The notes beneath the pieces are model-generated. The model saw only the letters and a list, made by a program, of their open reading frames with translations, searched no databases and was not told the origin of the DNA. Of a stretch of 64,000 nucleotides of DNA, positions 25,744-29,375 are shown in pieces. The stretch is from Escherichia coli. Its GTDB lineage: Bacteria > Pseudomonadota > Gammaproteobacteria > Enterobacterales > Enterobacteriaceae. The stretch lies in NCBI RefSeq assembly GCF_046105845.1, contig NZ_CP151004.1; one strand, 5' to 3'. The translations under genes and the position numbers were made by a program. Position 1 is the stretch's first letter. Each line of letters opens with the position of its first letter.

Positions 25744-27444
25744 ATGATTATCGGTATTGACCTCGGGACGACTAACAGTCTGGCAGCGGTATGGCGAAAT
25801 GGACAAAGTGAACTGATCCCCAATGCGTTAGGCAAGTTTTTAACACCCAGCGTAGTTTGTGTTGACGAAAATGGTATGGTTTTGACAGGGGAGGCAGCTC
25901 GTGACCTGCAACTCATCAAACCACAAAATTGTGCAGCCAATTTTAAACGCATGATGGGCACATCAAAGACGTTTAAATTGGGCGGACGTGAATTTCGGGC
26001 AGAGGAACTCTCATCGCTGATACTGCGTCAGCTAAAAGAAGATGCTGAAAGCTATTTAGGTGAAGAGATAACAGAAGCAGTAATTAGCGTACCTGCTTAT
26101 TTTGGTGATGTGCAACGCAAAGCAACAAAATTGGCAGCTTCAATGGCAGGCTTAAACGTCGAGCGTTTAATTAACGAACCAACCGCCGCTGCACTGGCGT
26201 ATGGTTTGCATAATAAAGATGATGAACATCAATTTTTGGTATTCGATTTAGGTGGTGGTACGTTTGATATCTCCATACTGGAGTTGTTTGACAATATTAT
26301 GGAAGTACGAGCCAGTGCCGGGGATAACTTTTTAGGTGGTGAAGATATTGTCGATATCCTGATCGATGCATATTGCTCAAGGCGGGATCTTCCTGAAAAT
26401 ATTGAATGGCGTGAACCGACACTCCAGCGCAATTTACGCATCGAGGCTGAGCGTGTCAAACGCGTGCTTAGTATGCGCGACGAAGCTACTTTCAGTATGG
26501 AGATTGAAGGAAGGCGATATTACTGGCATCTGACCACAGAAAAATTTGAATTTTTATTACAGACCTTTTTCGAGCGAATACGTATGCCACTGGAACGGGC
26601 AATTCGCGATGCCAAAATTAATATTAGCCAATTAGACCAGGTTGTTCTTGTGGGTGGCACTACACGTATGCCACTGATTCGCAAACTTGTGACACGACTA
26701 TTTGGTCGTATACCGGCAATGCATTTAAACCCGGATGAAGTCATTGCCCAGGGCGCGGCTATTCAGGCAGCACTTAAAGCGCGGCACAGGGAATTACGAG
26801 ATATTGTAGTGACCGATGTTTGCCCTTATACGCTGGGCGTTGATACCTCTAAATCGCTGGGGCATACCCGCGAATCAGGCTATTTTGCACCCGTTATTGA
26901 GCGTAACCGAAGTATTCCTTGTAGTCGCGTTCGTGCCTTTTACACAGCACATGATCAACAAACAGAGGTTAATTTTAAAATCTACCAGGGTGAAAGCAGG
27001 ATGGTGGCTGATAATATTTTCCTTGCGGAGTTGTCAGTGAATGTTCCGCCAAAACCGGCCGGTGATGTGCGTATTGATGTTCGTTTTACGTACGACATTA
27101 ACGGTATTCTTGATGTCGATATCAGCGTGCCACTGACAGGGGCTAAAAATAGTCTGGTTATTGAACAGAATCCAGGGGCATTAACGAAAGAACAAATACA
27201 GCAGTCGTTGTCCAAATTAAGCCTGTTAAAAATTCACCCACGCGATGAACAGATAAACCAGGCCTTTATTGCCCGTCTTGATAATCTCTATCAACTCACC
27301 CTGGCGGAAACACGAGACTGGATAAGCAATTGCTCTCGTCAATTCAGTTATCTACTCGAGAAGCAGGATCCTGATCAACTAGCTGATTTTCGGGCTAAAG
27401 TTGAACCTACATTAGACTCTCTGGAATGGGAGCGTCTGCAATGA
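25744..27444 (+). CDS. Hsp70-family ATPase, HscC-like specialised chaperone (accessory)
   Basis: 566 aa from ATG at 25744 with GAAGAGGA RBS (track ORF begins at an upstream TTG); IGIDLGTTNS, DLGGGTFD and VGGTTRMP ATPase motifs; strong resemblance to remembered HscC; lower GC than flanks. Confidence 0.8.
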   Translation: MIIGIDLGTTNSLAAVWRNGQSELIPNALGKFLTPSVVCVDENGMVLTGEAARDLQLIKPQNCAANFKRMMGTSKTFKLGGREFRAEELSSLILRQLKEDAESYLGEEITEAVISVPAYFGDVQRKATKLAASMAGLNVERLINEPTAAALAYGLHNKDDEHQFLVFDLGGGTFDISILELFDNIMEVRASAGDNFLGGEDIVDILIDAYCSRRDLPENIEWREPTLQRNLRIEAERVKRVLSMRDEATFSMEIEGRRYYWHLTTEKFEFLLQTFFERIRMPLERAIRDAKINISQLDQVVLVGGTTRMPLIRKLVTRLFGRIPAMHLNPDEVIAQGAAIQAALKARHRELRDIVVTDVCPYTLGVDTSKSLGHTRESGYFAPVIERNRSIPCSRVRAFYTAHDQQTEVNFKIYQGESRMVADNIFLAELSVNVPPKPAGDVRIDVRFTYDINGILDVDISVPLTGAKNSLVIEQNPGALTKEQIQQSLSKLSLLKIHPRDEQINQAFIARLDNLYQLTLAETRDWISNCSRQFSYLLEKQDPDQLADFRAKVEPTLDSLEWERLQ

Positions 27445-29375
27445 ACTGCTGGGAAATATTAGGTTTACAACCTGGCGCGGAAGAACGAGATATTAAGCGT
27501 CGTTATGCGCAACTGGTAAAAAATTGCCGCCCGGAAGATTCTCCCGAAGCCTGGCAACAATTGCACGATGCTTATGAACAGGCTTTACGTTATGACGACG
27601 AAGATCAGTGGCAAGAAGAGGAAGAAGAGCAACCGATCAATATATCCAGGGGTATTGTTCATCCTCGTCCTGTGATGACATTTCGCGCACTCAACACCTT
27701 TTCTGGTCATCCACTTCCTGATGTCACTATTAAATCAGAGGAGGAATTCACCTGGCAAGCCGTGCTGGATATGCTCTGTGAGGAGAATGAAGCAACCCCC
27801 GAACACGCCCCCATGCAACTTGCTAAGGCGTTATCTTTCCTTGAGAAAAAAGATCTCAGCTCACGAATGAGCTTTGAAGAAGCGTTATTACTGCATCTTC
27901 ATCGGGTATTCCGGCCATTATTAACTCTCGCTGCTGCACAAACGTTCAGATGGCATTTAGTTGCAGGCAGTCGTCAACCCGTAATCCAGACAGAAATTAA
28001 CGAAAGTTGTCTTCTTTATTATCGCATCGAAAAAGAAATTACCACTTTCTTTGCCAGTAACTTGTCTCCACTGGAAGAAATGGAAAACGGGAAGGAAATG
28101 GCTACGATTTATCAATCATTAAAGGATAATGAAGAGAGCCTGAAATGGTTTGATATCGCAGTATTAAATAAAATTGCTGAATTTGAACTGTCAGACAACT
28201 ATATGGCATTGTTAATAGAGCGTTTATCATATTCCTGGCGAAAAGAAAAAATGATTCGCAAGTGGAAATTAACAGAACGCTTCAATAATTTAGCAATGCA
28301 ACATCATAGTGGATATAAAAAGTTACTAAACGCCATAAAATTAAAAGGTCTTTTTTATTATCCATCTTTTGTATTCCAGTCCTGCTTACATGCTGCAGAG
28401 CAAGACTATTCACTTGCCTGGTATTCTCTTGGCAAAATGTATTACGAAGGTGATGAGGTTTCACAGGATCTAAAATTAGCCTTTAATTGGTTTAGCCGTG
28501 CCGCGCAGCATAATGTTATCGATGCTCAGTATGCGCTGGGCATCATGTATAGCGATGGAAGGGGCACGGATAAGAATATTAGCGAGGCACGAAAATGGTT
28601 ATTACTTGCTGCCCAAAATGGCAACGCATCTGCGCAATATGAGCTTGCCCGTATCTCACGCTTTGCTGTTGAGCCATTACGAAATTATGAAGAAGCATTA
28701 CAGTGGTATTTATCTGCCGCCACACAAGGACATGAACTTGCCCAGTATGAATTGGGACAAATGTATATACAAGGGATTGGCGTGGAGCGCGATGAGGTAC
28801 AGGCCCATCGTTGGTTTTTGCAATCGGCGGAACAGGACCATTCAGACGCACAATATCATACTGCCAGCTTGTATAGTGAAAGTGAGAGTATTCCACAAAA
28901 CCAGGAAAAAGCGCAGTACTGGTTTACCAGAGCTGCAAAAAATGGTTCCGGGGATGCCATGTATGAATTGGGTAAATATTATTTAACCAACAATGATGAT
29001 CCTGAAAATAATGCTGAGGCTATTCAATGGCTTACTGGTGCAGCGCAGCGTGGGAAAATAAAGGCGATATTTTTGTTAGCCGAAATGTATCTCTACGGTA
29101 CAAAAGATGTCGCAAAAGATGAAAATCATGCGCTGCACTGGTACGAAAAAGCGGCGCGTTTAGGGGCAACCGAAGCGCAACACCAGACTGCGGCAATGTA
29201 TGCTCAGGGGACAGGCACTAAAATTGATAATAAACAAGCATGGATGTGGCTAACAATTGCCGGAAATAACAACCCTTGGATTGAAAAAGATGCGTTGCGA
29301 TGCTTAATGTCGGAACAGGATATTCAGGATGCAGAACAAACGGCTGCAAATTGCAAACGTCTGCTAAGGATTTAA
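27441..29375 (+). CDS. J-domain-like / Sel1-repeat protein, DjlB/DjlC-like putative co-chaperone (accessory)
   Basis: 644 aa from the ATG overlapping the upstream stop (ATGA); alternative ATG at 27426; N-terminal J-like helix pattern (WEILGL...RRYAQLVK...) with RPE at the HPD position; about seven Sel1-like repeats C-terminally. Confidence 0.75.
   Translation: MNCWEILGLQPGAEERDIKRRYAQLVKNCRPEDSPEAWQQLHDAYEQALRYDDEDQWQEEEEEQPINISRGIVHPRPVMTFRALNTFSGHPLPDVTIKSEEEFTWQAVLDMLCEENEATPEHAPMQLAKALSFLEKKDLSSRMSFEEALLLHLHRVFRPLLTLAAAQTFRWHLVAGSRQPVIQTEINESCLLYYRIEKEITTFFASNLSPLEEMENGKEMATIYQSLKDNEESLKWFDIAVLNKIAEFELSDNYMALLIERLSYSWRKEKMIRKWKLTERFNNLAMQHHSGYKKLLNAIKLKGLFYYPSFVFQSCLHAAEQDYSLAWYSLGKMYYEGDEVSQDLKLAFNWFSRAAQHNVIDAQYALGIMYSDGRGTDKNISEARKWLLLAAQNGNASAQYELARISRFAVEPLRNYEEALQWYLSAATQGHELAQYELGQMYIQGIGVERDEVQAHRWFLQSAEQDHSDAQYHTASLYSESESIPQNQEKAQYWFTRAAKNGSGDAMYELGKYYLTNNDDPENNAEAIQWLTGAAQRGKIKAIFLLAEMYLYGTKDVAKDENHALHWYEKAARLGATEAQHQTAAMYAQGTGTKIDNKQAWMWLTIAGNNNPWIEKDALRCLMSEQDIQDAEQTAANCKRLLRI

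Follow-up and report, generated by a model that had tools for sequence, protein, structure and literature searches.

The His-Pro-Asp (HPD) tripeptide of the J domain is a textbook invariant of Hsp70 co-chaperones, and a gene in an Escherichia coli genome raises the question whether a J domain with Arg in place of this His can be a working partner of an Hsp70. The gene lies in a stretch of 64,000 nucleotides of contig NZ_CP151004.1 (assembly GCF_046105845.1), referred to here as the window, and encodes a J-domain/Sel1-repeat protein directly behind a gene for an HscC-type Hsp70 (Table 1). The gene is already annotated and a His-Pro-Glu (HPE) form of the tripeptide is known; the unusual part is the change of His to Arg. 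Judged by its sequence, the J domain belongs to the lineage of the E. coli proteins DjlB and DjlC, in which Glu already stands for Asp, and falls within a large group of J domains with Arg for His. We consider it reasonably probable that the protein is a working, specialised J co-chaperone of the adjacent Hsp70, in which Arg does the job of His and the helical and Sel1 domains select the client or the location.

The J domain and the register of its tripeptide

The translation of positions 27441-27620 of the plus strand reads MNCWEILGLQPGAEERDIKRRYAQLVKNCRPEDSPEAWQQLHDAYEQALRYDDEDQWQEE, and the codons cgc ccg gaa at 27528-27536 specify Arg30-Pro31-Glu32 (RPE), with the Arg30 codon CGC one transition away from the His codon CAC. 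The sequence-only reading of this DNA had recognised here the N-terminal pattern of a J domain, with RPE at the position of HPD, and both points are borne out by independent comparisons. The match to the Pfam DnaJ family (PF00226) is weak or marginal (residues 3-46, independent E-value 2.1e-4, 21.8 bits). A phmmer search of the PDB with the first 80 residues gave mostly J domains, and KNCRPEDSPEA lies over KEYHPDKNPNA in the alignments shown, by which R30 corresponds to H, P31 to P and E32 to D. A profile of 48 family members matched 45 PDB sequences at E <= 1e-3, all of them J-domain or J-like (best E-value 3e-9), and in the alignments printed its consensus "rPe" falls on HPD. In the AlphaFold2 model of the J domain (predicted local distance difference test score, pLDDT, 84.9), helices are located at alignment positions 2-6, 14-27 and 34-56, the tripeptide lies in the loop between the second and the third of them, and a separate helix IV is not predicted. 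The 50 Foldseek matches listed from the PDB are all J or J-like, nearly all with a probability of at least 0.9, and their query-normalised template modelling (TM) scores range from 0.48 to 0.87.

The helix II-loop-helix III hairpin typical of J-domain proteins is therefore present according to the model, Foldseek and the profile, and the residues at the aligned position of the His-Pro-Asp signature are Arg-Pro-Glu. Neither an HPD elsewhere in the 644-residue protein, whose full translation was read, nor a different fold was found, and the original observation stands. By sequence, profile and predicted fold, the gene encodes a genuine J domain.

The start codon of the gene (ATG at 27441) shares bases with the TGA stop codon of the preceding Hsp70 gene (ATGA), and the overlap suggests translational coupling of the two genes. 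This start agrees with the RefSeq start in E. coli 042 and with the N-termini of all orthologues (MNCW, MSCW or MTCW). The protein is 93% identical to WP_000995915.1 of strain 042, annotated as "J domain-containing protein". Residues 1-180 of the 042 protein (L001 5842-7785) and of the window allele are identical. Past this point lie nearly all of the 43 differences and a 3-residue indel, chiefly within the Sel1 repeats, and this uneven divergence suggests recombination or diversifying change in the repeat region.

Arg-type J domains among relatives and their Hsp70 partners

An exhaustive HMMER search of 1.84 billion cluster representatives, with residues 1-325 as the query, yielded 1988 proteins at E <= 1e-3. 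Among the best 150 representatives (one per 50%-identity cluster), 141 J domains were readable, and their tripeptides are RPD (68), HPE (31), RPE (21), HQE (7), NPE (5) and KPD (2), with HPD, RAE, HSE, SPE and HME occurring once each and two frameshifted E. coli fragments making up the rest. Arg, found in 90 of the 141 (RPD, RPE and the single RAE), is thus the majority residue at the first position. The sequence-only reading is correct as regards the replacement of His by Arg, which is real; it needs amending in other respects, as Glu at the third position already works in DjlC (HPE) and Arg is common among the relatives of the window protein. All five full-length orthologues P0008-P0012, which are 41-49% identical to it, have RPE.

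The remainder of the motif is well preserved. Among the 81 clusters (50% identity) of the Arg group, 99% retain Pro, and the third residue is Asp in 84% and Glu in the others; this conservation of Pro and the acidic residue equals that of the structural core residues A44, Y45 and A48. Tripeptides of the His group end in Glu in 98% of cases. A correlation thus exists between the first and the third residue, and the RPE of the window protein is a minority combination. The correlation could reflect a compensation of side-chain length or mere shared ancestry. Apart from the two frameshifted fragments, family members have H, R, N, K or S at the first position, each a hydrogen-bond donor and none hydrophobic or acidic.

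The distribution of relatives over genomes was assessed by a motif scan of one genome per species, in which RP[ED][DE]D[PA]x[AG][YFW]Q or KRR[YF]AQL[VL]K was required and 497 relatives were confirmed; the locus-level results given here refer to the best 80 of these 497. RPD or RPE is present at 79 of the 80 loci, the reading pattern having failed on the remaining one. Because the scan patterns were derived from Arg-type sequences, the 497 loci are skewed to RP[DE], and both counts describe a biased sample and not a frequency. The best 80 loci come mostly from Pseudomonas, and also from Klebsiella, Burkholderiales, Janthinobacterium, Massilia, Actinobacillus, Leucothrix, Atopomonas and Moraxellaceae.

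These results indicate that the Arg-type J domains form a large, apparently undescribed bacterial group. HPE occurs in about 1% of J-domain proteins, and the largest survey of J domains, which dropped sequences without HPD, discusses HPE only (PMC10410713). According to a 2026 review, HPE is apparently the sole tolerated replacement, and the meaning of other deviations, accidental or selected, is "enigmatic" (PMC13254874). A description of RPD or RPE J domains was not found in the literature searched, which did not include Barriot et al. 2020 (J Mol Biol).

The Hsp70 encoded directly upstream, with a GAGGA sequence before its ATG at 25744, is 44% identical to HscC of E. coli K-12 over 551 residues (E 1e-162), and the NCBIfam DnaK and HscA models match it below their cut-offs; RefSeq names its 042 orthologue "Hsp70 family protein". 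Features shared with the HscC subfamily are a 4-residue deletion at DnaK 208-211, a linker whose last residues are Thr-Asp, the Asn at DnaK 481 and the Arg at 414. The linker segment corresponding to DnaK L391 reads V-V-T-D. The identity, the sub-threshold DnaK and HscA scores, the indel and the linker place it in this subfamily. It differs from HscC in being a distinct paralogue, which coexists with hscC in strain 042, and in the residue at DnaK position 166, which is Glu here and Val in K-12 HscC. According to the alignment (DnaK numbering), it keeps the catalytic and nucleotide-binding residues D8, K70, E171, D194, T199 and D201, as well as the allosteric residues P143, D148, R151, K155, N170, D326, D393, N415 and L484. 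Also kept are the J-contact residues of the DnaK-DnaJ structure, namely R167 and Q378, which contact the Asp of the tripeptide, and P419, which contacts its Pro.

A similar arrangement is found elsewhere: at 31 of the 80 loci an HscC-type Hsp70 gene (product 48-77% identical to that of the window) ends no more than 100 bp upstream on the same strand, and at five further loci such a gene lies within about 2 kb. Each of the nine HPE, NPE, HQE and HPD relatives examined likewise has an Hsp70 gene directly in front of its own gene; the conserved unit is thus an HscC-type Hsp70 gene followed by a J-protein gene, whatever the tripeptide.

Several of these loci have features of their own. In Klebsiella spallanzanii, beside gdhA (L004 4264-10466), two J-helical-Sel1 genes of 669 and 822 aa lie in tandem behind the gene for an HscC-type Hsp70; both encode RPE, and the first overlaps the Hsp70 stop codon. 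Several paralogues from Klebsiella huaxiensis are present in AFDB, some called "EsiB" for their Sel1 repeats. At the locus of one HPE-type relative (L088 3278-4996), the upstream Hsp70 was called as two open reading frames (ORFs) of 213 and 358 aa, which is probably due to a frameshift or an assembly error.

A probably working motif and the alternatives to it

In the structure of the DnaK-DnaJ complex (PDB 5NRO), His33 of DnaJ bonds the backbone carbonyl of the linker residue L391 (PMC8215388). Since the partner of this His is a backbone carbonyl, the contact would not depend on any Hsp70 side chain, and Arg should also be able to donate such a bond; the finding that the first-position residues are all hydrogen-bond donors fits this contact. 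We propose that the helix II-loop-helix III hairpin of the window protein docks on the interface formed by the nucleotide-binding domain, the linker and the beta part of the substrate-binding domain of the ATP-bound Hsp70. The guanidinium group of Arg30 would then give a hydrogen bond to the backbone of the interdomain linker, as His33 does in DnaK-DnaJ, Pro31 would pack on the conserved Pro (DnaK P419), and Glu32 would pair with the conserved Arg167 and Gln378. The docking would trigger ATP hydrolysis; the client, or the place to which the Hsp70 is brought, would be bound by the novel helical domain and the eight Sel1 repeats.

As Arg is the normal state in a large bacterial group, it is probably a working variant and not a broken one, and the retained Pro and acidic residue, the Arg majority and the Hsp70-J operon fit a maintained working motif better than a disabled one. 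The number of switches between His and Arg was estimated from neighbour-joining trees of 43 partner Hsp70s, with a DnaK root, 100 bootstraps and Fitch parsimony. Most Arg-type systems (the window, Klebsiella, Burkholderiales and Pseudomonas) form one clade, and those of Leucothrix (RPD) and Actinobacillus (RPE) branch elsewhere, among the His-type systems. Three changes between Arg and non-Arg are needed in 92 of the 100 bootstraps and at least two in all 100, and these repeated switches suggest that His and Arg are interchangeable in this J-domain family.

Several observations speak against a working Arg. Even the replacement of His by Gln abolishes ATPase stimulation in every canonical system tested (PMC8215388, PMC13254874). 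At 44 of the 80 loci no Hsp70 gene is present in the sequence up to 8 kb upstream, although for two of these loci the upstream sequence is too short for a judgement. When every column of the partner Hsp70 was scanned for residues tracking Arg versus His, no interface position stood out convincingly, the comparison being limited to 10 non-Arg pairs, and phylogeny confounds the other discriminating columns. A compensatory role was considered for the acidic residue found at DnaK position 166 in 31 of 32 Arg-type partners, but was rejected, as such a residue is also present in His-type partners. The neighbour-joining trees are crude, and an exchange of J genes between operons could inflate the switch count. 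At position 167, Lys tends to occur with RPD and Arg with RPE or HPE, a tendency confounded by the Pseudomonas lineage.

The conservation of the loop could also be due to binding without stimulation, and it is also expected of a pure binding interface. The window protein would then be a pseudo-J domain (type IV) which binds the adjacent Hsp70 without triggering hydrolysis and acts as a tether, a recruiter or a competitor holding the ATP state at a site defined by the Sel1 repeats. We regard this possibility, which the sequence-only reading had raised, as rather unlikely. The essential role ascribed to His and the loss of stimulation upon H-to-Q and also D-to-N exchanges in all systems tested (PMC13254874, PMC8215388) are in its favour, as is the view of the review cited above that HPE is seemingly the only tolerated replacement (PMC13254874); the presence of HQE, NPE, KPD and SPE in the family could likewise mean a relaxed catalytic constraint. 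In the pseudo-J domains of Pam16 (DKE/DKS) and DnaJB13 (HPL), however, the motif is lost as a whole (PMC13254874), while here Pro and the acidic residue hardly vary and only hydrogen-bond donors occur at the first position. Moreover, no second, His-type J gene was found beside the Arg-type Hsp70 operons examined, and both J genes of Klebsiella encode RPE; under the pseudo-J reading, the Hsp70 would thus have no stimulating partner encoded with it.

A working Arg may also have a more specific purpose, which would refine the favoured reading and does not exclude it. The change of His to Arg might keep the function and at the same time insulate the window pair from the resident HscC-DjlB/DjlC system with HPE, a suggestion that we put forward only tentatively. 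E. coli 042 carries both systems, whose Hsp70s are just 44% identical, one Pseudomonas genome has two Arg-type J genes, one adjacent to an Hsp70 gene and one not (L058 and L006), and HscC is known to be unresponsive to J proteins other than its own (PMC8215388). No Hsp70 residue tracking Arg versus His was found, though, and the specificity could equally lie in helix II, where K26 and R27 of DnaJ correspond to Ala and Gln of the window protein; the co-occurrence of the two systems was checked in one genome only. A decaying gene, in which the function of the J domain has been lost and the locus drifts towards a pseudogene, seems highly improbable. Many truncated or frameshifted versions do occur in E. 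coli assemblies (P0002, P0006, P0015-P0023), only about 7% of complete E. coli genomes carry the island, and no sigma-70 consensus promoter was found upstream. On the other side, the window ORF is intact over 644 aa and identical to that of 042 in the first 180 residues, neither RPE nor any part of the architecture is lost in the orthologues from Klebsiella and other genera (41-49% identity), and the partner Hsp70 is intact.

The reading of the protein as a working co-chaperone has a broader form. Arg may functionally replace the supposedly indispensable His, and the RPD and RPE proteins may constitute a large, overlooked class of active, HscC-dedicated co-chaperones in several hundred bacterial species (as found by the motif-restricted scan), which arose more than once and was perhaps selected to insulate paralogous Hsp70 systems; we give this generalisation an even chance. 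If true, it would overturn the view of HPE as the only tolerated variant and would answer, for one case, whether deviations from HPD are accidents or selected. Through the locus described here, a His-to-Arg variant has come to light that occurs naturally, is widespread and conserved, and has a genetic link to its own Hsp70.

The island and comparison with known systems

Table 1. Features of the two-gene insert and of the J-domain/Sel1-repeat protein (positions of the window)
Feature	Position	Strand	Basis
J-domain/Sel1-repeat protein gene (644 aa + stop)	27441..29375	+	ORF list/translation
J domain, residues 1 to ~57: helix I, helix II, loop, long helix III	27441..27611	+	Pfam, phmmer, profile, AlphaFold2, Foldseek
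Arg30-Pro31-Glu32 at the canonical His-Pro-Asp position	27528..27536	+	direct sequence reading; register from PDB alignments
Acidic linker RYDDEDQWQEEEEEQ	27588..27638	+	translation; pLDDT drop at the end of the J-domain model
All-alpha middle domain, residues 96-335, without known family	27726..28445	+	AlphaFold2
Eight Sel1 (TPR-like) repeats, residues 328-610	28422..29270	+	Pfam PF08238
HscC-type Hsp70 gene (566 aa), presumed partner of the J protein	25744..27444	+	44% identity to K-12 HscC
Low-GC two-gene insert between topB and gdhA	25300..29430	.	GC profile

Beyond the J domain, the protein comprises a middle domain for which AlphaFold2 predicts 12 helices (pLDDT 89.2, predicted TM score 0.86). 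No Pfam match to this domain was found in any of nine members, and a Foldseek search of AFDB50 gave 12 entries at E <= 0.001, among which the named organisms are Escherichia, Shigella and Klebsiella, with all others at E > 1. The repeats that follow give eight Pfam PF08238 matches, six of them with E <= 3e-4, which identifies them as Sel1 repeats, and this region is 34% identical to YbeQ, a Sel1 protein of the K-12 hscC locus (E 7e-40). The C-terminal parts of the Pseudomonas RPD proteins are unrelated, so the J domain is a shared module placed on different targeting regions. PADLOC gave no meaningful defence-system match: a Sel1-like stretch matched PtuA (E 1e-6), with no stretch passing alone, and a match to PDC-M61B was weak (E 8e-4). 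The PHROGs matches are to families of unknown function only, and no literature linking HscC with anti-phage activity was found.

The GC content of the two-gene insert is 0.37-0.47, lower than that of the flanks (0.51-0.57). Of 5426 complete E. coli genomes, 364 carry the J-domain segment, among them 042, F11 and ATCC 25922. In strain 042, the classical hscC-djlC-djlB-ybeQRTU cluster at leuS-rihA is accompanied by the RPE pair at topB-gdhA; the HscC/DjlB/DjlC and RPE systems thus coexist. The topB-gdhA junction is a variable site: in K-12 (NC_000913.3 1843831-1844871) it is occupied by ynjI, encoding a DUF1266 protein, in place of the pair. In an enterobacterial relative (GCA_013820845.1, L003 3434-4234), an extra ORF of 266 aa without a Pfam match lies between topB and the Hsp70 gene, where the window has only an ERIC-like spacer. 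YnjI was considered as a relative of the J protein or of this 266-aa ORF, and no sequence relation to either was found. The K-12 genes hscC, djlB and djlC are accompanied by DUF1266 genes (ybeR, ybeU) and Sel1 genes (ybeQ, ybeT). Because such genes share the K-12 hscC locus and the topB-gdhA site, the DUF1266, Sel1, J and HscC-type genes seem to travel together.

The spacer between topB and the Hsp70 gene (25350-25560) is presumably ERIC-like, as what we take to be the 25-nt core of the enterobacterial repetitive intergenic consensus (ERIC) matches exactly once in the window (25486-25510, minus strand). A stretch of 251 bp from the spacer is found in 778 E. coli genomes with 80-100% identity, at no more than three places per genome; the records listed carry no annotation for it. 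Rfam matches in the spacer upstream of the Hsp70 gene are below threshold, and neither a sigma-70 promoter consensus nor that of an intrinsic terminator was found around the operon.

Among known J domains, those of E. coli DjlC (YbeV) and DjlB (YbeS) are the nearest to that of the window protein, with 35% and 34% identity, respectively, in ungapped alignments (NCWxIL ... AYExALR). In common with them, it has Glu at the third motif position, a short J domain and an adjacent gene for an HscC-type Hsp70; both the J sequence type and the adjoining Hsp70 that mark the DjlB/DjlC type are thus found here. DjlC stimulates HscC (PMC8215388, PMC13254874). The Pseudomonas genome with paired and unpaired Arg-type J genes is reminiscent of DjlC and DjlB of K-12. 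The differences concern the tripeptide, which is HPE in DjlB and DjlC and RPE in the window protein, and the remainder of the polypeptide, as no similarity extends beyond residue 86 and there is no match to the Pfam family DjlB_C_2nd. A hydrophobic C-terminal anchor has been reported for DjlB and DjlC; inspection of the translation, with no transmembrane predictor run, revealed none in the hydrophilic C-terminus of the window protein. The loci differ as well (topB-gdhA for the window pair, leuS-rihA for DjlB and DjlC of K-12), and the Sel1 repeats that are fused to the J protein in the window belong to separate proteins, YbeQ and YbeT, at the K-12 locus. This fusion is a "Rosetta stone" hint that YbeQ and YbeT of K-12 may work with DjlB/DjlC-HscC.

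With the canonical J domains of DnaJ, CbpA, DNAJA and DNAJB, the window domain shares the hairpin fold and the register of the loop, and equivalents of the basic residues R22 and K23 of DnaJ helix II are kept, in contrast to those of K26 and R27. It differs from the canonical J proteins in having RPE for HPD, in lacking a Gly/Phe region and in the absence of a separate helix IV from its model. Type IV or pseudo J proteins, such as Pam16/Tim16 (DKE), DnaJB13 (HPL) and the type IV J-domain proteins of Plasmodium, have a recognisable J domain with a non-conservative change of HPD (PMC13254874). By its change of His to Arg, the window protein falls under this description, which is silent on mechanism. 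However, the type IV proteins lose the whole motif and are thought to be non-stimulating, while the window protein keeps Pro and the acidic residue, its Arg is conserved group-wide, and its gene is coupled to that of its own Hsp70.

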